The notes beneath the pieces are model-generated. The model had not been told where the DNA came from. It was given only the letters and a program-made list of their open reading frames with translations, and searched no databases. From Flaccisagitta enflata (lineage: Eukaryota), in assembly GCA_965153355.1 (NCBI GenBank), contig OZ231126.1, positions 5,518,001 to 5,582,000 of the forward strand: DNA of 64,000 bases. Direction: 5' to 3'. Below are positions 28,941 through 63,292 of the stretch, piece after piece. The position numbers and the translations under genes are program-made. Every line of letters starts with the position of its first letter. The stretch's first letter is position 1.

Positions 28941-29682
28941 AGAGAGACTTGGGCTTGGCATTCAGAAATTAGTTTTAAACGTAAGAAAACGCACTGGATC
29001 GAGAAAGAGACTATCAATAGAATTTGACCTTTTCAAATGACCGAGATAAATTTGAGGTTCGAAATCAAATAAAATTCTTTCATCTATTGAGTTTAACGAA
29101 AAATAAGAGAGAGATCATTAAACTTGATTATTAAAGTGCAGACTAGTTTTAACCCTCTTCATAGCCCACTTTTGTTGTGGTGAGTTTTTAAATGTTTGGG
29201 TACAGTAAAACCTCGCTGGACCGCTACAACGGATCCAAGAATAACAAAAATCCGTCTGTAACAGACAAAACATCGGTCTCTCCGGATCATTTCTTTTTGT
29301 TGGATGAAATTCATAAGTCCCCTGCCGTCCGTTATTGTTTGCGGTGTGAAACTGTATCAATGATTGCACTCAAGAATGTACTTAAGAAAAGGTCCCTTTT
29401 AAGGTTGTTAATGCATCCAGAAAAAAATCTCTGGGTGTGTTGTTATCGGTTTGGCCCAAACCGTTTCGGTGGATGATTGAACTCAGAAAAGTTTCCCCGA
29501 TTTTGAGTTTTGAGGGATGAATGTACTTTTGCTCCTGAAATGGTTCTTTCGAGTTTTCTTGTCGTTTTTGTGCCTGGAAAATGTCTGCTTATCATCTTCA
29601 TCACGTCATCCTACTTTCTTCAGCTTTCTCTCTCTCTGTCTCTCTCTCTCTCTCTGTCTCTCTCTCTCTCTGTCTCTCTCTC

Positions 29683-30783
29683 ATTGAGCTGCCCGGCAAC
29701 TTCTATGAGAAATCTATTATGGCCCAAGCAAGAATCAAAGCCAAGCTTGTAAAAGATTCACTAAACAGGGACCACGCTGACAAATACCTTGCAAAGCCAC
29801 AACATGGTGCATTTGCCCGCTTATTAAATGACAATGAGGCAGACGTGAAGCAATCCTTTGCGTGGTTGAAAAAGTGCCACTTAGATCCACACACTGAGAG
29901 CTATATCTGTGGTGCTCAGGAGCTTGCAGTTATTACTAAAGTCCATGAAAAACGCATCCTGAAGAATAGCTCTGATGACCTTTGCAGAGTTTGTAAAAAG
30001 GACCCAGAATCGATCTTCCATATCTTAGGGGCCTGTGATGTACTTGCAAAGCGGGAATACTTTACTCGACACAACAACATTTGCAAATATCTCCATTACA
30101 AAATCATGAATCACTACCAAGTCAAAACAGGTGACAACTGGTTCCATCATGAACCAGATGATGTTGTTCTCAACGACAAATGTGAGATCATCTATGATCA
30201 AGTTATAGCAACCACAAGGCCTGTTGGAGCTAATCGCCCTGACATCATTGTAAAGGATAAGACAACTAAGAATGCACTCATTATTGACGTTTCTTGCCCG
30301 GTTGACACAAATATCGGAAAGAAAGAACGGGAAAAAGTGGGCAAATATGCTGGTCTAAAGGGGGAACTACAGAGGATGTGGGGTATGAAAGCAGAAATTG
30401 TCCCTATTATTGTGGGTGGGCTTGGAGCTATTACAAAAAACCTGGGTGACGAACTTACCAAAGTCCCTGGCCATCCAGACCGCTTCATGTGCCAAAAAAT
30501 TTGCCTCCTTGGATCTAAGAAGATCCTCCAAGACGTTTTAAAGAGAAGATAAAGAGCAAGCCCAAAGAACACCCTTTTCGCCAAGCCCAAGAAAACAACA
30601 ACCCTCCAAGACAGTTTCTAAGACAGTTGCCAAGTCAGTTTTTAAGACAGTTTTTCAGACAGGTTTTAAGACAGCCCCTTAAACAGCATTAATCTCCTAT
30701 GAGGACAAGCGCTCTTCCGGAGAAACGAACAATGCGCCCATAGCTGTGACTTTGGTGATGATTCTTCAATATATCATATTTTC
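29683..30783 (+). mobile_element. 5'-truncated non-LTR retrotransposon with restriction-like endonuclease (R4/Dong-like)
   Basis: ORF to 30552 with CRVCKKDPESIFHILGAC (CCHC finger), RHN, RPDII, IIDVSCP and KxxKY motifs of RLE; RT domain missing; flanked on both sides by (CT)n. Confidence 0.85.
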
Positions 30784-40066: not shown

Positions 40067-40466
40067 GTAAGCAGGATAATACGACCTTCAACAAAACAAT
40101 GCAACAGCTGATAGAGCTGTAGCAGCTAAAAACGCTGCAGCAGGTAAGCAAGATTTCTCTTAATACGAACTTTTCCACGAAAATGCAACAGCTGATGGTG
40201 TTGCAGCTTCTGCAGATGTTGTAGCAGGTAGGTCATATGACTCATATCGTGATGTTTGCAGCATCAGATAACACACGCAAGGTTGCATGCTTAAAAGTGT
40301 CACCATTTTTATGGTCTCACCTCACCTTCGGCCCTCTTAGCGACCTTCAGCAGCATCACAAAACCCTCCATCAGCAATGAAGCAGAAACTCTTCCCTCCA
40401 CTGAAGCAGAAACTCTTGCCTCCGAAGCTCTTCCTTTCTATAAAACAGCATCTTCACTCTCCACAG

Positions 40467-40832
40467 GCTCTGATGAGATCGATTTGGCGGTTTTTAGCTT
40501 CCAAGAAATCGATCGACATTGTGATCTGTTTGAAGGCGACGAACCCTGGACGAAGCTGCTGACGGACGAGTTGACGACGAGCCATTCCAAGTCCGCCGAT
40601 TCGACAAGCCATTCCAACTCTGCTCAGTCGACGAGCCGTTCCAGCTTCGTCCGATTGGCGGCGGTGCGCATGGAGAAGATTCTGCTGTTGGTGTTCATCC
40701 GTCGGCCGCTGCTGCACAGAGTCAGAAATCTGAGAACTTCTTACACCAAAACCGGATTAGGAGGACTGAAAGGCAATAAAGGAGGAGTAACGGTCAGGCT
40801 GACGCTAATGGGGAGAGAGATATGCATCGTGG
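40467..40832 (+). CDS. INPP5K: Inositol 5-phosphatase, exon 2 (alternative in-frame acceptor at 40341)
   Basis: DLAVFSFQEI and TGLGGLKGNKGGV motifs; G|GTGAGT donor, phase 1. Confidence 0.85.
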
Positions 40833-41322
40833 GTGAGTTGTTGTTGTTGTTGTCCTTTTTGTATTGTCGTTGTTGTTGTTGTTGCTTTTTCGTTGTCAAT
40901 GTTGTTTTTGTTGTCGTTGTTGTTGTTGTCGTTGATTTTGTTGTTGTTGCTTTTTCGTTGTCGTCGTCGTCGTCGTCGTTGTCGTTGTTGTTGTTGTTGT
41001 TGTTGTTATCGTTGCTGTATGCAATGCAATCGTTGTCGTTCATGATAAGTCATTTGCATATTTGTAGCTCAACTTGATTTGGTCAAGTAAACGTTTGTAG
41101 TTGCGGACACGCAACTCTTTATCCGTCCGTCCGTTGGTCCGTCCATCCGTCCGTCGGTCCGTGGTGATCGAGTTGGAAAGTGTGAAAACGCGCATTTCCG
41201 CCACTGCCCACCCGTCCGCAACTGGTATTGGCCGTGTATCCGGCCTTGTTTCTCCCTTTTCGGCATTTTCCACTTTCCTTTTTCCATCCCCCCCCCTCCC
41301 CTCTCCCATTCATTCCTCAAAG

Positions 41323-42458
41323 GCTGCCACTTGGCGGCTCATCTCTCAGAACAAGCGGAACGCATCGTCGACTTCACTTCCATTCTCGACGAGCAAGTCT
41401 TCGAACTGCCCGTCAACTCCACTTCATCATCCGCATCCTCGAGACACCTCCGCATCCTCGATCACGATTATGTCATCGTCGCCGGCGACCTCAACTTCCG
41501 ATTGGACGAGATTCCGCGTCAGGAAGTCATCGACCAATTATCGCTCGTCTCCGATAACAACGACGACGACGTCAATGACAACGATGTTGATATCAAAGAC
41601 AACAACAATGGAAGTATCAAGAACAACGATAATGGAAGTATCAAACCAACCAATCAGCGTCGTCGTCGGGAGATTTTCGACAGTCTTTTGGTCCACGATC
41701 AACTTCGTAAAGCCTTCAAGATGGAAAAATGCTTCCTAGGATTTGACGAAGGACAGATCGACTTCAAACCGACATACAAATTCGACTCTGGACAGTTTAT
41801 GACATGGGATTCGTCGCAGAAACAACGGAAACCCGCGTGGACCGATCGCGTCATCTGGCGAGCGCATCCGGAAGCAAAGACGATGGCGAAGAAGTCGTTG
41901 ACGAAACCGTTGAGCATCCGCAGTCAATTCTACGTCAGCGATCACGCCTTTGTCAACAGCGATCACAAACCCGTCATGTCGCATCTCCAACTGGGCGTCG
42001 ACTCTTTCGCCGATGGAGACGTCAATCGCGTTGTCAAGGATGGTGAGGATTCGGTCCCCGTCGTCGTCGTGGAAGCAGTTGGCGGAGCGTGGCGCCAATC
42101 CGTCAATGGCGTTTGTCGACTCCGTTTTCCACCCGGCTTCCGGGTCCACAGTCACGATTGGGTCGGACTCTTCATCGCCGACGAGTTGCCGCATCTCAAG
42201 TCGTTCGTGACGTGGTATTGGGTCGCATCCGCGGTCGACGTTGAGGAGGAGGAAGAGGAGGAAGAAGAGAAGGCAGTTGGTCGACAAAAATGCGATGGAT
42301 TTTTAAAAGAACTAACATTTGAGAGTCAATATGTGAAGGCGTTGACGGGCAGCTCGAACATGTCCAAGTCTACTGAAGGGTCCCATCAACTGATTTATAT
42401 TTCCGGAGATTATGACAACGTCTTCGGCGTATCTCCCGTATTTAATATTCACCCATGA
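41323..42458 (+). CDS. INPP5K: Inositol 5-phosphatase, exon 3 (catalytic motifs + SKICH domain)
   Basis: CHLAAH, GDLNFR, PTYKF, PAWTDRV, SDHKPV; C-terminal DWVGLF..WYW..FGVSPVF SKICH-like region typical of SKIP/PIPP. Confidence 0.92.
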
Positions 42459-49962: not shown

Positions 49963-50560
49963 GAATCTAGAAAGCAATTTCTAGAATCTTTTTTCATTGG
50001 CAAGGGTGAATAAATTTTCTTATTTGTCCACAATTTCTGCAATCTCACAATTTTTAAGATAGGTCTACTCTTTTGCTTGCCATTTCCAACCATTTGAGTT
50101 ACAGAATCCAGAGAGTATGCATCTTTTACCTTTTAGGAAATAGAATATTTTGAGTTTTTTTTAGCCTATTTAATGTAAAAGCTGAGATATCAAAAATAAA
50201 GTTGAACAATTTTTTTTTCTATTTTTTTAACAAACTTTAATTTTTCTTTTCTTTTCTTGCCATTACAAAAAGCCACAACAACCAGAATAGACTCAACTTA
50301 CAGATTTTTTTGTATTAAATTAATTTTTACAGAATTTTACAGAATTCTTGTGTTTCTTTAAAAGCTGAGATATTTTTGTTAGGTGTCGCGTTTCATTTGG
50401 CCGAGATAGTAAGAACTGATATTGATCAGTAAAGATGGAAAAGTAAAAAACAAAGGAAAAATTTTGTAAAAATATTTTTGGTACAGCGATCTTTACCAAA
50501 ATATCTCAGTTATTTTCGCTCATCATTTACATAGGCGCAAGCGGCGCTTAAGCGTTTATT

Positions 50561-52172
50561 ATGGAGGTGGAAAAAACATTCATCCTTGACGCGAAAGCGC
50601 TAAAGAAACAAAATACTGGGAGTTTCCAATTGCCTATAGGAAAAGAATATACAAAAATGGTGATAGATCTGGAACTCCAAGAAGCTGCTTCCATCGAGAC
50701 ACTAGACATGCTATATAATCCTGTTAAGACCGTCATTGGCAGCGAAAAACTTGCCGGTATAAAAATTCTTAAAAGCGACAATTGCAAGCTCGACATAGTC
50801 CCTGGATGGATCGCAGAACTCGAAAATGTAGAAGAAATTCATCTTTGGAAAAATGACTTAAAAGAGGTGCCATCTTGGTTTTCTGATCTGCGGAAACTAA
50901 GAAACTTGAATTTATCATCTAACAAAAACCTCCATTCACTCCCGAGCATCAATGATTCCCTTGCCATACTTGATATTTCATATTGCAACATCAAAATTCT
51001 ACCTGATAACCTTTTTCAACACAACCTACAAGTATTAATAATGCATGAACCACTATTCCTTAATAGTAGTGGAATCCAGACTCTCCCGACTAATTTCTTT
51101 CAACATCACTTCGAAAAAATCAACTTGAGTGGAATTAATAACCTTGAATCACTCCCTCGTGTAAATGACTCTCTTAAACAGCTGAACGTATCCAACTGCA
51201 ATATCAAAACGCTCCAAGAAGATTTCTTCCATCATAGTCTAGAAAAAGTTGATTTGCAAGGAAACAAAAACCTTCAATCGATTCCAACTGTGAATGCCTG
51301 TCTTGCTCAACTCAATATTTCTTACTGCGATATCAAAACTCTGCCCGATAATCTTTTTCAACATGGATTGAACAAAATCCAGTTACAGAACAACCAAAAC
51401 CTTAAATCAATCCCAAGCATCAATGATATTTTGGAAGAACTTGACCTCTCTGGTTGTGACATCCACACTCTACCAGAAGATGTCTTTCAACATTGCTTGA
51501 AAAGCGTTAATTTGAGTGGTAATAAAAACATTAAATTGACACATCGAGTCAACAACTGTCTGAAAGAACTCAACATTTCAAACTGCGACATTCAAACTCT
51601 TCCTCCCAACATTCTTCAGTATAGCTTGAAAAGGATTCAACTTAACAACAACCCAAATCTCAAATCAGTTCCCAACATCAATGAAAATGTTGAAGAGATT
51701 GATCTCAGTGGTTGCAACATCTTGAAACTGTCAGATGATTTTTTCCAGTATCATCTGAAAAATGTTAACTTGAGTGGAATGAAAAACTTGAAATCAATTC
51801 CTCGCGTAAATGCCTTTTTGATGGATCTTGATATTTCCAATTGCGACATACAATCACTTCCAAATAATCTATTTCAGCACGGCTTAAAGAGATTGAAGGT
51901 GCATAATAATCAAAACCTCAAATCAATTCCAAGCATAAATGATGATTTTGAGGAACTTGTTCTCAGTGGTTGTGACATCCACTTTCTCCCTGATGACTTT
52001 TTTCATCATCGCTTGAAAAAAGTTAACTTGAAAGGAATGAAGAACCTGCAATCAATACCAAGCTTGAATGACTTTCTTGTGGAACTGGACATATCAGGAT
52101 GCGACTTACAGACACTTCCTGATAATCTGTTTCAGCACAAACTACAAAGGATCAGTACGAAGGAGAACTCAG
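50561..52172 (+). CDS. Roco protein, coding exon 1: leucine-rich repeat array
   Basis: ATG after in-frame TAA 50549; about 20 LRRs, mostly as 43-aa doublets; CAG|GTGAGA donor, phase 1. Confidence 0.9.
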
Positions 52173-52286
52173 GTGAGATTATAATTTATAAGTATGGTTC
52201 TTCGGGGCTGACATGACTTAGCAGATATAGTGAAATATATCTCAATGGGTTTTACCCTGGATATTTATCCATCTCAATGGTTTTTA

Positions 52287-53061
52287 CAGGGTGTCCCAAG
52301 TCAGTTGTAACATAAGGAATCGACATATCTCTTCTTCTAAATCCTTAAATCAATTTCTAAAAAAAGATCTATGAAGATCTAGGTCTGCACTTTTTGTTAT
52401 ACTAAAACTTCAACTTTGAATATTGGAAAGTTGGTGGTGAGAAAATATCAAATGAGTGGTGATATTTGGTGGAAAATTATCTTTTTCATAGCTGTATTTG
52501 GAAGTAGCTGGCTTTAAGTGTTTGCCATTTTTTGACAAATTGATCTAAAAACCTGGGATTGGTCACAAATGAAAGATAATTGTACAGATTGTAAATCTGC
52601 TTTGAAAACTTGGACAATATTAACAATTAATGACTGTTTTGATGATTTTTGTCAATTATTGTAAAAATCAAAAATGGAAATCTTAAAAAAATCATTGAAA
52701 ATCTTACAAAATTTTTGAAAATTGGCAAATTTTTTTGGTGATCTAAAATCTATGACAAATTATCTGCCATTTGAGACCAATCGCAGGGTTTTAGCTCAAT
52801 TGGTTGAAAAGTGCCAAGTTGTTAAAGACAACTACTTACAAGTACAGCAAAAAGTGAAAAAACAAAAAAAGACTCGGTCAGAAATTATTAGTGAATTTTA
52901 AAGAAATGTGGTCCCTAAATAAATAGTCCAATTGTCATGAAATTTTGCATGCAAAAAGTGCAGACCAAGATCTTTTTAGATCTGTTTTCAGAAATTGATT
53001 TGAGGACCTACAAGCAGAGATATGTCCATTCTTTATGTTACAACTGACATGGGACACCCTG
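52287..53061. mobile_element. Tc1/mariner-type MITE
   Basis: TA on both sides; TIR CAGGGTGTCCCA.GTCAGTTGTAACATAA.GAAT / ATTCTTTATGTTACAACTGACATGGGACACCCTG. Confidence 0.82.
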
Positions 53062-55490
53062 TAGTTGCATGCTACACAACTCTTCACCCCGCTATGTTGG
53101 TCCGTCCATCCGTCACTCGGTCGGTTGGTCGGTCCCCTTTTTACTTTTTTGGGATTTTTGGACTTTTTGAGCCTACTGCTCTTGCCCAAATGCTCTAGTG
53201 ACCTTCTCCAGCACTGCTCCCGCCCACCCGCACGCGACTGGGGTAGCCGTGTTTCCGCCGGTTTCCTGGAGTTTTTTTGCCAATTCTTTTTAGTCGCGGA
53301 CACGCGACTCAATAACTTGCCGTGTCGGTCGGTGAGTCACATTTTGGAATTCCGAGCAGTTCTCGCATTATTGCTCCTGCCAAACCGTCCGCAACTGGAT
53401 TGCCGTGTATCCGGCCTTGGTTTGTTTTTTGTTGGTACAGGGTCATCAATATCTTTTAGGACATAGTGTTAAGATTTTACTCTAAGATGCATCCTCTGTA
53501 GGTTGGTATAGGTAGATATCTTCTCACTACCCTGCCATCAAAAGCAACTGATACCAGCAAAACCTTTATGGTATTTATTTTGAGAAAATCAGACTGGTTC
53601 TGTCTGAAAGAACATAACTTACCATTTGTTCATGAAAATTTAACAGGTCGCCCAAGGGTAATATGTGGTCACCGATACCCGTTGCCCTGCTTGGAGTGAT
53701 TGTGAATTGGTGGGAGGGGAAGCAGGGCAGCGGCCCCAAAGGGGACAAAGTCCTGTAGAACACAGGGGGACTTTCATTCGTCCTGCCTGAAGAAGTGAAT
53801 GAGATGCTATAGAGGGCTGACTGAAGGCCTTCAAGAGCCTAAACTGAGGTCTAAGAAGGCAGATGTAAGGCCTGAGAATGTCAATCGGAAGCTTGAGAGG
53901 GCTGACTCGGCTTGAGAGCGCTGGACTAAGGCTTGAAAGGTCAGAGGACTGAGAGCAATAAATTTAGGCTTAGATAGCTGATTTGAGGCCTGAGAGGCCT
54001 AATTTGAGGCCTGAGAATTTGGATTTGAGGCCTGAGAAGCCTAATTTGAGGCTTGAGAGGCTAAGTTTGAGGCCTGAGAGGTTGGATTTGAGGCCTGAGA
54101 GGCCAGATTTGAGGTATGAGAGGCTAAATTTGAGGCCTGAGAGGCTGGATTATAAGTCTGAGAGGTCAGATTTGAGGTCTTAGAGGCCAGATATGAGTTC
54201 TCAGAGGCCAGATTTGAGGTCTCAGAGGCCAGATTTGAGGTCTGAATGGCCTGATGAGGGGGCGGGGGGGACAAACAAACAAACGAACGAAAGTCCTCCT
54301 GTGTTCTACAGGACTTCGTCCCCTTTGGGGCCGCTGCCCAAAAAGCACTGGCTTTAGCGGTTTAGCTTTTGCCTAATTAAGAAAAGTGATATGATTTTTA
54401 GAATTTTTGCCCAAAAATTCTGTTTTCAAGCAAGAGAACATCAGTATATGTATAAGTAAAGGTAGAAACTTTCTGATTGTTCATGATTGAGAAGTAATTG
54501 ACCCTTCTTTTGTATGAACTTTAATTTTTTACCATTCTTATGGAGATTTAGGTTGCCAGTCACCAGTGATGTGATACAAAACCTGTTCAAAACAAGGCCG
54601 GATACACGGCTACCCTTGTCGCGTGCAGGTGGCCAGGGGCCCTAATTGGGGTCACTTGATCACTTGGGCAGAAGCAGTGAGGCCAAAGACCGCAAAAGCC
54701 AAAAGAAAGTTAAGTGTGACGGAAGGACGGACCAACGGACCAACGGAACGACGGACCGACAATGTGGGGTGTAGAGTCACGTAGCACGCGACCAAAATTC
54801 AGAGGAAAGAAATCAGATTTGCCTTATGATTTCCCCTATCTTTGCATCTTTTTTAGAAATGCGTAAGCTGTAGCGGATATCTTATAAGACTAATCTGGCC
54901 ATTTTTTATTGATTCATAAATAAATGACATTAATTTGAAGCTACAGAGGTCAGTTTATCAACATTTTCAGAAACCTAACATTGCGTAAATCACATTTTTT
55001 CTCAAAACTACATGGAAGCTAAACCGCTAGAGCCAATACTATGAAATTTTGCATGAACAAATGGTAGGAAATGTGCTTTCAGACAAAACCAATCCGAATT
55101 TTTAAAAAGGCCAACACCTATAAGTCGCGTGCGGGACATAAAGAATAACTTGAGATGACTTCAAATGACTCAAGATGACTTTAAATGAATCAAAAAGACC
55201 TAAAGTGACTTAAACGACTACATGCTCTGGTTTAAAATCTTTTCAGAGATTTGTAAACCACTATGCAATAGACCCCTTTTGGCCGATGTCCTGTAGAACA
55301 CAGGGGGGATTTTGAGACGTCCGTCCATCCTTCCATCCGTCCTTCCGTCCGTCCTTCCGTCCGTCCTTCCGTCCGTCCTTCCGTCCCCCCCGTTGACCAT
55401 CCAGGCCTCAAGTAAGCCCTCCCAGGCCTCAATTTAGCCCTCCAGGCCTCAAATTAGCCTTCTTCGCTTCAAATCAGCCCCCCCCCTCAT

Positions 55491-57912
55491 TAGGGCCAAC
55501 GGTTTTTGCATCAAGTCAATTGAACACCCCAGTCTGCAGCTTTTTTAAACAGACTATGTCTATACTGTTGAAAACTACTCGCTATATGACTTTTCTCCGT
55601 GATTTAGAGGTGCCAGATTTGATATATTGATCATAACTTGATGGTGGTTGTGGTAAAAATGTCAAATTTAGGTCATTTTGGCCACGAAATTGGGCCACTT
55701 AGCCGTAGAAATCAAACCTAGACTCCATGAGATTATAAAACTAAAGCTCAAGATCTCACTAATGGTGCAATCCGGATGTTTCTATCATTTTTCGTTTACA
55801 GTGCGGCTCAAAAAAAAGTTTTAGGTCTTTTACATGTTATATTGCAGGTATTTATTGATAGATCTTAAAAAAATCCATGATAGAATTAAAGAGTTTCAAA
55901 AAATGAAGCATATGCCGCCAAGCACAATTATTTTGGTCAAAAGGTTTGAAAGTTACAGTAGTTTGAAGTTGATGTCCCAAAAATCTGTTGGGAAAAAAGC
56001 TAACTTTGGCAACAAAAAAAATCAAACTGCTTGTTTGTCAGTGTTTCACATCCAAGCAATGAGAAAAACATAGCAAAATCCATGACCATTTTGAAGCTCT
56101 GCAAAAGACCTTTCAAATGAGACCTTGCCAGATGTCCTTGCTCTATCCGTTTAGAAATGGCGTAAGGATGAAGACTGGTGGTAAATAATTTGGAAATCTA
56201 CTATGTGATTTTCATGGCTTATCTTTATTCTAACATAAAAGTTAAACGCATTGAGTTAAAACTTTGTTCTTAGCGCGATTTTGCAGAAAATTTAAAGCTC
56301 TTCATTTTGCTCATGGATAAAGAGTAGCTAAGATAATCTTGAGCTGCATCATTGTCAAAATAGGAAAAACTAAAATTGTTCATTGGAAAAACATGAAATG
56401 AGCATTTTTTTTCAATCAGTGATTTTTTTCTTCAAACCTTTGCCATTTCTAAACGAATAAAGCTACAGTGACCAGCAACATCCCATTTGGAAGATTTTTC
56501 GCAGAGCTTTCAAATGGTCATGGATTTTTTATGGTTCTGGCCCACAGTTAATCAGTTTAGTGCTCGCTTTTGATGGACTTTAAGGCATTTAGGTGATGAA
56601 ACCTCAAAAACACCCTTGCAACTTTTTTTTTTTTTATACTGCATCATTTTTCACTTTCTAGTCAAACTGTGAAGGTTCATTCAAGTATTGTAGCCTAAAT
56701 TATAGATGATAAAGAAAAAATAGTTAAAAGGTTATTTCTATTGCTATAATATAGGATCTAATACTACCTAAAACTTTTTTTTGAGCTGCACTGTAGATTT
56801 GAGAGCATTTAAAAGATGAAAGGGTTTGAAGGGAAAATTGCGGCTTCACAAATTTCAGTATTTCGCAGCTTTAGATGGACCAATCTGCATAAAATTGGTG
56901 ATCAAATTGAACAGTTTTTCCTGTTCTAGCCAATGGTAAAAAAAATTTTGATCGATATTCCCCCAAAAAAATTTCAGAGACTGAAGAAGCAGGTGCAAGA
57001 AAGTCGATTTTTTTGCAAATTGGTCAATTTTCGATGCCACTTCCAATTCATAAAAAGACTTAAAATCCATGAGCAAAATGAAGTACTGCTCAGGAGCTAA
57101 CCAGTGGTGCAATTGGCGTGTCAATATGTTTTTGCGTTTAGATTTTATAGAACTTCAAAGATTAAAATACCCAAAAATTGTTATTTTGACATACCCTTAG
57201 ATCTTTGAAGTTCTATAAAATCTAGATGCAAAAAGATATTGACACGCCGATTGCACCACCGGTTAGCTCCTGAGCAGTACTTTGTTTTGCTCATGGATTT
57301 TAAGTCTTTTTTTTTAATTGGAAGTGGCCTAATTTTTCATCCAAAATTGACCAATTTGCAAAAAAAAATCAACTATTTTGCACTTACTTCTACAGTATCT
57401 GAAAATTTTTGGGGTGAATATTGATCAAAAAATTGTTTACCATCAGAACAGGAAAAATTCTTCAATTTGATCACCAATTTTATGCAGATTGGTCCATCCA
57501 AAGCCGCGAAATGTTGAAATTTATGAAAAATATCATAAGTGCCACTAAAATTGAAGCCGCAATTTTCCCTTCAAACCCTTTCATCTTTTAAATGCTCTCA
57601 AATCTAAACAAAAAATGATAGAAACATGCGGATTGCACCACTAGTGAGATCTTGAGCTCTAGTTTTATAATCTCACGGATTTTAGGTTTGATTTCTAAGG
57701 CTAAGTGGCCCAATTTGGAGGCCAAAATGACCTAAATTTGATATTTTTACCACAACCACCATCAAGTTATGATCAAAATATCAAATCTGGCACCTCTAAA
57801 TCACGGAGAAAAGTCATATAGCGAGTAGTTTTCAACAGTTTAGACATAGTCTGTTTAAAAAAGCTTCAGGCTGGGGTGTTCAATTGATTTGATGCAAAAA
57901 CCATTGGCCCTA
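55491..57912. mobile_element. Fully palindromic hAT-type foldback element, inserted in a HINE
   Basis: TAGGGCCAA...TTGGCCCTA ends, 8-bp TSD CCCCTCAT (55483-55490, 57913-57920); after removing nested 55799-56793 the two ~700-bp arms pair to a centre near 57185. Confidence 0.85.
55799..56793. mobile_element. Tc1/mariner-type MITE nested in the hAT foldback
   Basis: TA TSD; TIR CAGTGCGGCTCAAAAAAAAGTTTTAGGT / ACCTAAAACTTTTTTTTGAGCTGCACTG. Confidence 0.82.
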
Positions 57913-57933
57913 CCCCTCATGCCACAAATCTGC

Positions 57934-58514
57934 CAGTCGCCCAGAGCTTGACGCAAGTTGACCTTAAATGATCGCCACCAACTTCAGTGGTTTCATGACC
58001 CTGATGGCGCATAGAATACTTATCTAGAGAAAATGAAATCTGTTTTGGAAAAAAACTGGAACTGTATTTTTATAGATCTTTGTGATAAATTTTGATTTTA
58101 GCTCTGGGATTTGATCTCAGATGATATTTCAGTTTGTTTGATAAGTCACACTATATACTTTTGCAAAAGAAATAGAAGCTTATTTTTTGGTCACATTACT
58201 ATAAAAAGCAATGTTAAATAGCAAAATTTAAGTTTTCATTTCTTTTGCAAAAGTATATAGTGTGACATATCAAACAAACCGGAAACTATCATCTGAAATC
58301 AAATCTGCGGTCAAAATTATCAAAAAAATTAATCACAAAAAGTTATGGTGAAAGATATAGTAAAATAGTACTATTTTTTTAGATATCTTAAAAAGCGCCC
58401 CTAAACAGATTCTATTTTTTCTAGATATGTATTCTATGCACCATCAGGGTCATGAAACAACTGAGGTTGGTGGCGATCATTTCAGGTCAACTAGCGTCAA
58501 GCTCTGGGCGGCTG
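57934..58514. mobile_element. Palindromic foldback MITE, superfamily uncertain
   Basis: CAGTCGCCCAGAGCTTGACGC... / ...GCGTCAAGCTCTGGGCGGCTG; arms pair along most of the length; TGC on both flanks. Confidence 0.75.
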
Positions 58515-59894
58515 TGCTGCCCTCCAGACCTTCAATCAGCCCTCCAAGCATAAAACCAGCCCTCCATACCTCAAATCTGCTCTCCAAGCCTTTATTTTGC
58601 CCTCCAGCCCTCAAATATGCTTTCGGTGGCCTAAATTAGCCATCTAGAGTCCCTCAGGACAGACAGAAGGACAGAAGGACGGATGGACGTCTCAAAATCC
58701 CCCCTGTGTTCTACAGGATATTGGCCCTTTGGGGCCGCTGCCCTGCTCTCACTCCACCTCTTTACTGGATCACTCCAAGCAGGACATCGGGTACCGCTGA
58801 CCATGTACGATCCTTGGATGACTTGTTACCCGTACTGTAGTTGCTAAAAATCCTACTATAGTGCCCTATTGGGTACTGATTTCCAACTCCCTGATGTCTT
58901 TTGTTTTACTGACTTTCTAAGCGGATTTTTATTTAGGGTTAGGGGTAGGGTTAGGGTTAGGGTTCGGGGTGGTTTTAGCGTTAGGGTTAGGGTCATGACC
59001 GGTCAGGACTAGCGTTGGGGGCTAGGTGAGAGGTTAAATACATTTCAACTTGAATCTACTCGAATTAAAGCTTCGCCCAAACGGGAAAACCTGATAAAAA
59101 CAAAAGATCAGTAGCGTCATTTCTTCCCCATATTGTCCATCTACTACCATGTGCTGAAGAGAAAAATGTAATTTTCAAATGCTTAGCTCAATTCTCAAAT
59201 GTCAAAATTAGCATTAGGAGTAAAAAGTAAAAATTTTGAAGTAAAAATTTTTTGAAATGTGATTGCAGATTCGGATTCTTCATGAAAAAGTCTTCTTTTT
59301 TTATATTCTTTTTAGAAGCCTATCAAATTTCCAAAAAACTAATGAAAAGCGCAAAAATGACCTTTTTTTTAGTTAAAGATAGATTTTTACCCATGTTCCC
59401 ATAGGAAATTTAAAAAGAAGGACTTCACTTTCGGTATGTCCTTTTCAGTCATGGACACGCGACTCTAGACCTTGCTGTATCGGTTGGTTGGACAGTCACA
59501 TTTCCTTATTAAGAGCATTACTGCCCCAGCCCAACCGTCTACGACTGTCCAGCCATGTATTTGGCCTTATTTATAGTGAATCTGCAATCAGTTTTAAAAA
59601 TCTTCATTTCAAAAATTTGTATTTCCTTTACTCGTTGCCGATTATGATGGTTGAGAACCAAGCCAAGAATTTTGAACAATGTTTTTTTTCTGTTAACCAC
59701 ATGATAGCAAATGGACTTTGCAACAATATGGCGCTGTGGTGAGATGTCTATCTGCAGGAAAAAATTGGTCCACTTTGCAAAACATATTTATTACGCCTCG
59801 GGTTTGCCCAGGTGGATTGTGGTATGGAGAGTCAAAGTTTTTTTGTCAGCTTACCCTACTGGTTTTCTGGCTGACATATTATCCTGCCCGTTAG

Positions 59895-62800
59895 GTTTGA
59901 CAAATCTACCTCCACTTTCTACTGGATGCCCTTTGGAGAAACTGGATGCAAGCAGATGTTCCATTATGGCACTTCACCCCTCATTCTTTAAGAAGGGCAT
60001 ACAAGTTGATCTTCGCAACAATCAAATATCAGAATTACCACGTAATAAAACGCTGCAGTATCTTCAAGAGGGTGGCTCCCTTGAAAAGAAAGAAAATGAT
60101 GTCTCTTTTATTGCCTTAGAAAACAATCCACTGGTATACCCACCCCAACATATCTATGAAAACGGTATTCCTTCCATTATCTCCTACATCTCAAAACATG
60201 ATAATGTACTTGTTGACCCGAATGATTTTTCCCTGTTACTCATTGGTAGTCAAACGGCTGGAAAATCCTCGCTAGGGCTCACATTCGCAGGTATAATTCC
60301 AGATGCCAGTGCCATTGAACCTGATGACCGTACTCATGCTTTTGATACCTACCCATCGTCATTGGACTCTGTCAATGTCACAATGATTGATCTTGGGGGT
60401 CATAAAGAGTATGAATCATGTCTTGCTGTACTTGGACGTAATGGGGGACTTTATGTAGGTGTTATCAACCCAAGGGATATTGAAAGCAATGAGAATTTGT
60501 ACCTTTCTCTTTGGTCATGGGTTGAAAAAGTGCTAGATGGTGCAGACCAGCCGCATTTTGTTTTTGTTGTTTCCAAATCTGATCTAGCAGGATTGGAGAA
60601 AAAATCGTCATGTTTTTCAGCAGAAAAATACAAGGGTCAAAAGATGATTGAGTTCCAGCAAAAACTTATTCAATTTCTTGATGTAAAACAAGAACAGTTA
60701 CAAATGGTCAGACAACTAAGGGAGGAGCAGCTGAAGGTTGAAATAAAAGAAATAGAGAAGGAAATGGGAGAACACGAGAGTGACAAAAGTCATGTTAACA
60801 TGTTGGAACATAAGAGACAAATTTTGGACAAAAAATTGAGCAACCAATCCCAAAAAGTAAAGTGTCAACCGAACTTCAACACTGACTGCATAACCTTTGT
60901 CAGTTCCTTGGAGAAAGTAGGATTTTCTCAATTCAAGAAGAACCTGAAAAAAGTGATATCCAGAACATCAAAGGTCAAATTGCAGGCCAGCTGGATAGAA
61001 ACTGTTGAGCTATTGTTCTCTCACTATCAACAAGAACCTTATGTCAAGTTCATTGACTTACTGAGAGATTCAAACCTTGAAGAAGAGGATTTAGAGGAGA
61101 TGCTGACAGCTCTTTGCGTGATGGGTCGCATTGTGTGGGCCAATACTGAAGACAGGAAGAGAATTATTTTCCATCGACTCAACATTCTCTCACTCATGAT
61201 GAAATGTATTTTCTTCCATGGAATGGAATGGGTTTTTCCCATTTTTGCCAATCAGGTAAAAATATCCCTAAGATTATTGAAACAACGCTATGAGCAAGGT
61301 CAATTGCCGATGGAACTGATCAGATCTATGTTTGTCCATGTGAGCAAAAACTTTGACAAGTTGGTTCCTTGTGTAGCGGTTTCATACCAAGGATTACAGA
61401 TTAAACAGCTGGAGGGCGACATGGAAAAAGTGTTTTTGTCTTTCATAAAAACACTTGAAGCGTTAAATATGATCATGGCTTTAGATGATAAGGTTGGGGG
61501 AATGGAAATGTGTTTTGTTCCTAACCTGATCTTCAAAAGACCAGGTATTGCAGATAATCTGTGCATGTTGCACAACGTTTGCAAATTGCCTTGTTATGAA
61601 TTGGAGATTTCCATCAGTTTTAACTCTGCCCTCTGCAAAAACCGATTTTCGAAAATTTGCATAAGCTTCACAAAAGTGACCAAGTCAATATCTGCCATGA
61701 CAAATGAAAAGCTCGACATTAAAGCACAAGAGGGTGCGATGTTGGCTCAAATTGGGCACATTCAACTTCTGTTGAAATGCTATCTATTTCACTCTGAAAA
61801 AGATGCATTATTATTGTCAGTAAGAATAACTGAAGAAAATATAATCCCAGAAACTGCGTGGGTCATTCTGAAAGAGGTGGCATGCAAACTAACTTTGGAA
61901 GATGCTGACTGCCGACTAGTTTGCCCCTCTGCTGTATCAAAAGAACATTGCCATCATGGGGACTTTGTTACAGAACCAATGTTCCCCTCCACGCCTTTGG
62001 AAGTTGTACAAGAAACACCATCTTATTATGGACGCAAGATTAAGTGTCCAAATACTGTAGATATGAAAAACTGCTTTCCCTCTCATTTGGCAGTCAAAAT
62101 ACAGAAACAAATCTATAAAAAGAAGGGCGTTACAATTTCATCATTGGCGGGTGAGAAACCGTCGCATGAGAACCTAGAAATAATCAATTTGCTCTCGGTT
62201 ATTTTCAAAGTTCCCCTGTCCAAACCAGATCATGATCAAAATTATCTACTAAGACTGCCTGTTTTCAAAACCAACGTTGACAAGTTCCTCCACTTTGTTC
62301 AGCCCGTAAGGCAGAAACTTGATGACATGACCAAATGCACTGACCACGAAGATGGATGTTGTTGTTTCTCAGATGAGTACATCAACCTTTTCTGCCTTCT
62401 TGAAGAGAACGGTTTGATTGTAACTGATGGAGATTGGAAAGCCAAGATGCGACCAATACTTGAGAAGCACCCAGAATATGCAAAGAGGGAATCATGTGAC
62501 GGAAAATCTAGAAGCGTTGTTGCATTGGTCAGACTGCTCAGAAATCTTTCAGCTCACAAAGACCCTGAAGATCTCAATCATTCTTTATTCACAGAGATTA
62601 TCGAGGAGCTTGATTGGACCATCATGCACTGCTTTTCATTTTGGGCTAAAAATGTCCTGAAATCAAACTATACCCTCATTGTTTTTGCCGACACATATCA
62701 AAAACTTGAAAAAAATACAGTCGAGGAACGACTGACTAATGGTACACTAGAAAAACCCACAGACGCAATATTCATTGTTCAAGTTCGCAGCAAAGTTGGG

Positions 62801-63292
62801 ATAAGCAAAAACACAGTTTTTTTCAAAGATACAACCAAAACAGTGGATGATTTGGTGAGGGAAACCCACCAACAAATTGGTGTTCCCATGCGTAAGAGGA
62901 TAAGTTACATGGGCATATATGAACCAACTGTTTCATCCACTCCAACAACAGCATTAATCCCAGTCTTGCAACCTTCAGCTAATCTTGCAGATCTTAAACT
63001 TGACACCCTTAAGCCACATCTGATAAGAATCGAGGAGGAGCAGATCTGCTTACAAATCAAACTTCAGTACAATGACACTGAAGAAGATATGGAGATGAGG
63101 CTTTGGTCAGATGAGAAATTTGGAGTGGTTAAGGATCATATTGAAGACCACACTGGAGAAGAGCTCAGACTCTTCAAAGATGGGATTGTCATCAAGAATA
63201 CAGCAACCATTGGATCCATTTGCATTGATGATTTCCAAATACTTGCCATGGATAGTGATGCAAGGAAGAGATTCTTTGCTAGGTTTCAATGA
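59895..63292 (+). CDS. Roco protein, coding exon 2: last LRRs, ROC GTPase, COR, KEN-like RNase, two Ubl domains
   Basis: TTAG|GT acceptor, phase 1, rebuilds an intact LRR (LQRISTKENSG|LTNLP); G1 GSQTAGKS (60245-60268), G2 RTHAFD, G3 DLGGH, G4 SKSD, G5 VSS; COR-like L..L...G.I.W; KEN-like DW..SVVALVRLLRNLSAH; MFHAS1-like overall. Confidence 0.9.

Follow-up and report, generated by a model that had tools for sequence, protein, structure and literature searches.

A 64,000-nt stretch of the Flaccisagitta enflata genome (assembly GCA_965153355.1, contig OZ231126.1:5,518,001-5,582,000, forward strand; hereafter the window) carries a gene predicted to encode a two-exon protein of the order LRR-Roc-COR-KEN-UBL-UBL, i.e. 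leucine-rich repeats (LRR), the Roc GTPase and COR domains of Roco proteins, a kinase-extension nuclease (KEN) domain and two ubiquitin-like (UBL) folds. In the structural models the KEN domain occupies the slot of the Roco kinase. The KEN-encoding stretch lies inside a 1194-codon open frame (59708-63292, +), and by predicted fold and by motif its part at 62141-62698 is the end of an IRE1-type kinase followed by KEN. We refer to this protein and its paralogues as Roco-KEN.

The identity of the KEN domain is settled by the structure, the sequence evidence for the single copy being modest. The predicted structure of 62141-62698 (pLDDT 89.6) was compared with 48,161 chains. Yeast Ire1 was the best match (Z 9.5, rmsd 4.1, 156 aligned) and RNase L the second (Z 7.1, rmsd 4.3, 141 aligned), the next entry having a Z of 3.9; these values are below the tool's safe range for helical bundles, yet both KEN entries stand well clear and cover the domain. 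A Foldseek search with the same model gave IRE1 in all 30 listed rows. At the sequence level, the Pfam model PF06479 matched the single copy with E 4.8e-4 and 20.7 bits, which is below the curated cut-off of 23.3 bits; among 96 paralogues it matched 65 at E <= 0.1, the best at 7e-6. IRE1 was not among the matches of a single-sequence PDB search with the KEN region. With a profile of the 96 paralogues, HMMER returned IRE1 in nine of ten rows, in three collinear blocks but with whole-sequence E values no better than 0.29-0.4; first place went to MALT1, matched weakly over 55 residues (E 0.1). The hhalign comparison of KEN with IRE1 reached a probability of 81% (E 1.2e-5, 146 columns; reversed control E 0.44). 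The earlier note on this DNA had recognised KEN in the same three blocks and had proposed a structure-guided alignment; HMMER, hhalign and the structure all recovered the blocks, and no unrelated fold did better than IRE1 and RNase L.

The motif R-x4-6-H, described for the HEPN superfamily in PMC3710099, is present at the end of the catalytic helix. Other HEPN families fitted more poorly: HEPN_Swt1 matched nine of the 96 paralogues, and the best non-KEN HEPN structure had a Z of 3.3. An unrelated helical domain was rejected as well, since casein kinase 1, PglZ and MALT1, which had matched weakly at the sequence level, have no support from the fold search. A word-based protein search with the KEN region gave zero matches, the ESM Atlas gave no usable match for the KEN part, a scan of metagenome contigs gave none, and a protein profile search returned only four unnamed proteins.

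The structural match extends beyond KEN itself. Residues 1-180 of the model align with Ire1 940-1114 and RNase L 547-722, and since KEN helix 1 starts later in these proteins (at about 589 in RNase L and including 988-992 in Ire1, according to PMC8104961), about 40 residues of the match belong to the kinase end. P40 of the model is invariant (96/96) and F42 is found in 88 of 96 copies; they correspond to the HPxF that closes the IRE1 kinase. By sequence the 39-residue tail alone is weak (hhalign E 0.005, probability 7%; a reversed 62-residue control gave E 0.2). The 91 residues before it show no kinase resemblance (pseudokinase profile E 0.85), and neither the model nor profile alignment revealed anything more of a kinase between COR and KEN. 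Because the tail matches the kinase end and the preceding 91 residues do not, only two kinase helices remain, and the suggestion that the last two had been kept holds.

RNLSAH was confirmed at 62540-62557, with R at 62540, N at 62543 and H at 62555, i.e. at R+5. Conservation of these residues in paralogues had been set as a test beforehand. From 132 genome matches 98 were taken, by overall similarity and not by motif, and 96 were aligned after two broken or cut copies had been dropped. R134 and N135 are invariant, H139 is present in 94 copies and R131 in 90, and the invariant Arg is encoded by all six codons across the copies. The ratio of nonsynonymous to synonymous substitution rates (dN/dS; own NG86 script, 27 disjoint pairs) is 0.19 overall and lowest, 0.12, in the catalytic helix, which is the mark of purifying selection. 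The conservation of R, N and H together with this ratio therefore speaks against a dead domain, which we exclude. Of 23 homologues found outside the genome, 19 cover the site, and R-N-x3-H is present in 18 of them.

The Tyr of the IRE1 active site does not share this conservation. It was rightly noticed before that it has no equivalent at R-13 and that the nearest Tyr is at R-21 (62477), but the residue is lost rather than displaced. No copy (0/96) has Tyr at R-13, the R-21 alignment column holds Tyr in 25/96, and by offset Tyr is found at R-21 in 20 copies and at R-22 in 32, with none from R-26 to R-9 in 35/96. HMMER pairs the IRE1 Tyr with the R-15 column after a two-residue insertion, and this column is mixed (C36/L26/F17/M7). 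The Tyr loop and the preceding loop are also the least constrained part (dN/dS 0.25). As PMC3149027 reports for yeast Ire1, mutation of the His costs at least 3e5-fold and mutation of the Tyr about tenfold, so that loss of the Tyr need not abolish activity. Judged from the conserved site and by analogy with Ire1, RNase activity of Roco-KEN is likely.

A Cys-rich insert within KEN (KCTDHEDGCCC, 62333-62365) has the sequence and position given to it in the earlier note. It is 11-27 residues long in 85/96 copies, each with at least three Cys. What is conserved among the paralogues is the pattern C..H..C-x-C (72/96), whereas the CCC run is private to the studied copy (1/96). The remaining 11 copies are free of the insert and keep R-N-x3-H, so that an accessory loop fits better than a catalytic part. 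We read it as an accessory loop, probably zinc-bound, without a part in catalysis; metal binding by the insert is plausible.

By the structure of the model, the protein in front of the kinase tail is a Roco protein, Roc being followed by COR. Residues 1-734 of the exon model align to LRRK2 1231-1863 (Z 19.7, rmsd 5.7, 539 aligned), and the KEN domain accordingly falls in the place of the LRRK2 kinase. Foldseek with the 1132-residue model found LRRK1/2 and bacterial Roco proteins (LRRK1 E 8e-16), and a profile of 65 full exons placed Roco proteins first (4wnr E 1.7e-14, 6hlu E 2.7e-11). The GTPase motifs are intact (G1 65/65, G3 60/65, G4 63/65), and Roc carries a coiled-coil insertion at about 60620-60862, seen as helices in the model. 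In a Pfam scan of the studied copy Roc stayed under the cut-off and the COR models had no match. Behind KEN, Foldseek matched ISG15, di-ubiquitin and the OASL di-UBL over about 165 columns (E 3.6e-7 to 3e-6).

The sensor is predicted to lie on a separate upstream exon. An LRR open frame (50552-52216) has a phase-1 GT donor after 52172, in the register of the repeats, which pairs with the phase-1 acceptor at 59895 and gives 1669 residues. AG is found at the matching acceptor position in 65/65 aligned paralogue exons. In the 10-kb stretches upstream of paralogues an LRR frame was present in 10/14, with a phase-1 GT at the same register in all ten; these upstream LRR exons have widely different lengths. 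The features are collected in Table 1.

Table 1. Features of the predicted Roco-KEN gene (window coordinates) and the evidence for each.
Feature	Position	Strand	Basis
Predicted exon 1, LRR array, likely sensor	50561..52172	+	Pfam LRR_8 E 2.6e-26; alternating 21/22-residue repeats
Predicted intron, 7.7 kb, GT-AG	52173..59894	+	joining of the exons gives a 1669-residue open frame
Predicted exon 2: last LRRs, Roc, COR, kinase tail, KEN, two UBL folds, stop	59895..63292	+	model pLDDT 84.4, pTM 0.81
Roc GTPase; GSQTAGKS 60245-60268, DLGG 60389-60400, SKSD 60572-60583	60224..60964	+	profile match, model
COR with Cys/His linker (C 61910, then two further Cys and a His, all invariant, as far as 62047)	60974..62095	+	structure, conservation
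Kinase C-lobe end vestige, two helices and P-x-F (P 62258, F 62264)	62165..62266	+	structure, conservation; dN/dS 0.20
KEN domain and long helix towards the UBLs	62273..62740	+	Pfam, Foldseek, structure alignment
Possible zinc site: Cys/His insert following KEN helix 1 (C 62336, H 62345, C 62357, C 62363)	62333..62368	+	C 88, H 54, C 78, C 85 of 96
Lost IRE1 Tyr position (Cys here, R-15) and conserved Gly R-13	62495..62503	+	HMMER alignment, column counts
Predicted active-site helix R-x2-R-N-x3-H	62531..62557	+	R 90, R 96, N 96, H 94 of 96; dN/dS 0.12
Ubiquitin-like fold 1	62762..63037	+	strand/helix order in model; weak by sequence
Ubiquitin-like fold 2, no C-terminal Gly-Gly	63047..63250	+	Pfam ubiquitin E 0.022; polyubiquitin E 5.7e-4

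Elsewhere in the window, ten imperfect TTAGGG repeats (58933-58993) lie within the predicted intron. Exons at 40295-42458 (+) resemble, by their motifs, those of an inositol polyphosphate 5-phosphatase, and a frame at 29539-30552 (-) resembles the end of a non-LTR retrotransposon protein.

The gene is one of many. A genome search gave 132 matches on all nine contigs, of which 107 are in frames of at least 1000 codons, 25 are in short frames and 6 have stops; the genome counts are lower bounds by design of the search and may include some assembly duplicates. Pairwise identity of the copies goes down to 28%, and divergent homologues are present in other public assemblies. Copies of identical score were seen far apart or on different contigs (e.g. 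C2:49266659 and C2:69198958), which points to very recent duplication or to assembly duplicates. One Roco-KEN copy (L075:2468-7000, +) has additional LRRs behind KEN, and a distant one (L197:457-5301, -) combines R-D-x3-H with a C-terminal USP-type deubiquitinase (Pfam UCH E 2e-22).

A genome search with PF06479 scored 150 of 172 candidates, at places distinct from the 132. Three of the 150 are exons of two intron-rich IRE1 genes (C6:6.306-6.316 Mb and C4:63.77-63.78 Mb, both -). Most of those examined among the other 147 are LRR-membrane-pseudokinase-KEN-UBL receptors, mostly single-exon and 1300-1900 codons long (e.g. L065:1274-5710, L069, L071); some have two tandem pseudokinase ends. In 29 receptors at least 800 residues precede the motif; LRRs are present in 27 of these, a hydrophobic segment in 25 and both in 23. 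The HRD Asp is kept in only 2 of 55 scored pseudokinases. In this set, where R-N served to locate the site, the His is kept in 72/72 and R-13 is Tyr (58) or His (14). About 60 further kinase-KEN frames, 400-650 codons long and bearing HRD and DFD motifs, make up a fourth family; the four that were examined (L201-L204) all have R-N-x3-H, with Tyr at R-12. KEN or kinase-KEN is also fused to SH2 domains (L040:1480-3390, +; L174:352-2667, -). OAS1_C (oligoadenylate-synthetase-like) gave 18 matches of 20 scored, which are possible makers of activators of KEN proteins.

These families also bear on the origin of the module. The part kinase tail-KEN-linker-UBL-UBL aligns end to end with the receptors (hhalign 97.6%, E 3.5e-12, 320 columns; reversed E 0.51), and the KEN end with the linker alone reaches 90.9% against the receptors and 0.15% against IRE1. 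In trees of 84 and 43 chosen rows, built without RNase L or a non-animal outgroup and with long branches that meet, the two IRE1s of the genome group with the IRE1 of other animals (newt IRE2) and apart from the Roco-KEN family; each family forms one supported group and the order among the families is not resolved. Since the receptors share the linker and the UBLs, and IRE1 is without them, the donor appears to have been an IRE1-derived kinase-KEN-UBL cassette and not a present-day IRE1. The proposal that the module was excised from an IRE1-like gene is thus right as to the IRE1-derived kinase end, but IRE1 itself as the donor disagrees with the trees and the shared UBL module. The suggested phylogeny with the organism's own IRE1 thus separated the IRE1 genes from the family.

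A gene at L179:373-4956 (-), i.e. C5:79377277-79381860, has the order LRR-Roc-COR-kinase-KEN, in which the kinase is intact and of IRE1 type and COR is interrupted by a hydrophobic insert; it is an LRRK-like Roco protein with an RNase. A cassette 80% identical to that of L179 is found at C5:79771948, and L180 has one, 77% identical, behind a membrane segment. The cassette therefore seems to move between sensors, and a Roco protein with a full kinase-KEN exists in this genome. The data do not support L179 as the direct ancestor: its Roc-COR (92.6%) is no nearer to the Roco-KEN family than that of two TIR-bearing Rocos (97.2% and 96.1%), and its KEN module fits the receptors at 99% and the Roco-KEN family at 7%. 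LRR-Roc-COR-TIR proteins were seen as long single frames at L199 and L200. Two routes would lead to Roco-KEN: gain of the entire cassette with later deletion of the kinase, or a fusion point inside the kinase end.

We give roughly even chances to the reading that the gene encodes a cytosolic sensor-RNase of a large, probably immune family that is switched by Roco dimerisation. The variable LRR exon would bind the trigger, and Roc-COR, whose GTPase motifs are intact, would change its dimer state as expected from Roco biology; COR is a dimerisation domain according to PMC11378527. Roc-COR would in this way replace the job of the kinase in IRE1 and RNase L, i.e. bring two KENs together, and a dimer is indeed required by KEN in both enzymes (PMC3149027 and PMC8104961). 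The paired KENs would cut RNA via R-N-x3-H, probably more slowly or less specifically than IRE1 in view of the missing Tyr, and the two kinase helices may have been kept as the structural base of KEN. RNA of the pathogen or of the host would then be degraded, in the manner of RNase L. The IRE1-derived kinase-KEN-UBL cassette would have been attached to many sensors in this lineage. The immune role is suggested by the copy number, the clusters, the variability of the LRR exons and the precedent of HEPN family expansions; for these and for expanded KEN families a defensive RNase function has been proposed (PMC3710099, section 9). In other words, the hundreds of sensor-RNase genes may be an undescribed immune system. 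More tentatively, and with somewhat less than even confidence, we propose an innate immunity with RNA cleavage as its main output, in which several hundred receptors would serve as LRR-membrane-(pseudo)kinase-KEN proteins towards the outside and as LRR-Roc-COR-KEN proteins in the cytosol, the GTPase fully replacing the kinase in the latter.

Several observations weigh against the dimerisation-switched sensor-RNase. The kinase of IRE1 supplies much of the dimer surface, and Roco-KEN has no kinase. Tyr at R-13 has given way to Gly in 94 copies and Ser in 2, whereas the receptor family keeps Tyr or His there throughout. The His is lost in two of the 96 copies, one outside homologue is without R and N, and in all four examined Roco-KEN copies of greater divergence, none of them among the 132 matches, the motif reads R-D-x3-H. 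The sample of 96 itself leans to intact genes, because the 34 omitted matches are mostly short frames or near-copies. None of the 12.2 million RNA read records covered (about 6% of a single polyA run) fell on either predicted exon, and nothing in the analysis links the Roco-KEN family to infection.

The same losses can be read in favour of a KEN domain that binds RNA or acts as a scaffold with little or no cutting, the signal leaving through the UBL tail: Tyr is absent in 96/96, the kinase is absent, four distant copies have the R-D variant and one copy has a deubiquitinase behind the UBL. The Tyr is worth only about tenfold in Ire1 (PMC3149027), however. The His is kept in 94/96 and the catalytic helix is the most constrained part, so that we consider this explanation unlikely, if the best of the rivals. 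Next comes an active RNase with another switch, i.e. pairing with a receptor KEN, release of LRR/UBL auto-inhibition, or redox at the Cys insert. Some Roco proteins dissociate on binding GTP, and the genome holds hundreds of KEN partners. The Cys insert moreover adjoins KEN helix 1, through which the two RNase domains contact each other in Ire1 and in RNase L (PMC8104961). Such a switch is improbable in our view, for KEN takes the very position that is under Roc-COR control in LRRK1/2, the GTPase motifs are intact, and 11/96 copies are without the insert.

A non-immune task of active sensor-RNases (stress, development or environmental sensing), in which chosen host mRNAs are cut as by IRE1, would agree with the ancestral role of KEN in the unfolded-protein response (PMC3710099) and with the missing link to infection. 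Two ordinary IRE1 genes are already present, though; the number of copies, their tandem clustering and the variability of the LRR exons agree with an arms race of receptors, and constraint is lowest in the Tyr loop and the loop before it; we hold this task to be quite improbable. A mostly silent or selfish expansion, by mobile DNA or assembly duplication, is very improbable: the absence of reads in the small sample, the short and stop-bearing frames and the identical scores across contigs are set against a dN/dS of 0.19, an acceptor AG in all 65 exons, the wide divergence of the copies and the homologues in other assemblies.

KEN is known from two enzymes, both of which are switched by a kinase, and a natural KEN with two kinase helices would show the smallest unit that KEN needs. 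Roco-KEN makes it testable whether pairing alone is a switch and how important the Tyr is; if our reading is true, there is a kinase-free way to switch on a KEN nuclease. The outputs of Roco proteins are mostly unknown, and KEN gives them a readable one. Together the about 130 Roco-type copies, the 147 further Pfam KEN matches and the about 60 kinase-KEN frames would make a very large receptor-RNase family, and the wider KEN set may be an invertebrate equivalent of the RNase L pathway.

The fusion of Roco and KEN was not found in the literature accessible to search, most subscription papers and supplements being outside that scope. Large LRR-Roco families of brown algae are proposed immune receptors in PMC11378527, in the main text of which "RNase" and "ribonuclease" occur 0 times. 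Anantharaman et al. 2013 (PMC3710099) described kinase-free KEN expansions in Oikopleura and monocots, with one KEN-UBI fusion, and DZIP3-type HEPN fusions to NACHT/LRR; the main text has no Roco fusion ("roco" 0, "cor" 0), and its accessible part has no LRR-membrane-kinase-KEN receptors. The Oikopleura and monocot expansions resemble Roco-KEN in that KEN has parted from the kinase, is expanded within a lineage and is predicted to be a defensive RNase.

With IRE1 (Ire1p/ERN1) Roco-KEN shares the KEN fold, the kinase-end helices, R-N-x3-H and the upstream Arg, but it lacks the lumenal domain, the membrane helix, the kinase and the Tyr, and has instead the Cys insert, LRR-Roc-COR in front, two UBLs behind and over 100 copies. 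RNase L, the second-best fold match, follows the same logic of a soluble repeat sensor joined to KEN, with ankyrin repeats in place of the LRRs and a pseudokinase in place of the GTPase unit; Roco-KEN gave no hint of a 2-5A site, although no test aimed at one was made. The Roco proteins (LRRK1/2 and prokaryotic Roco) have the same LRR-Roc-COR order and fold, whereas LRRK continues with kinase-WD40 where Roco-KEN has KEN-UBL-UBL. Roco-KEN is thus a KEN protein by fold and motif but neither IRE1 nor RNase L, i.e. a new wiring of known parts on an unusual scale.
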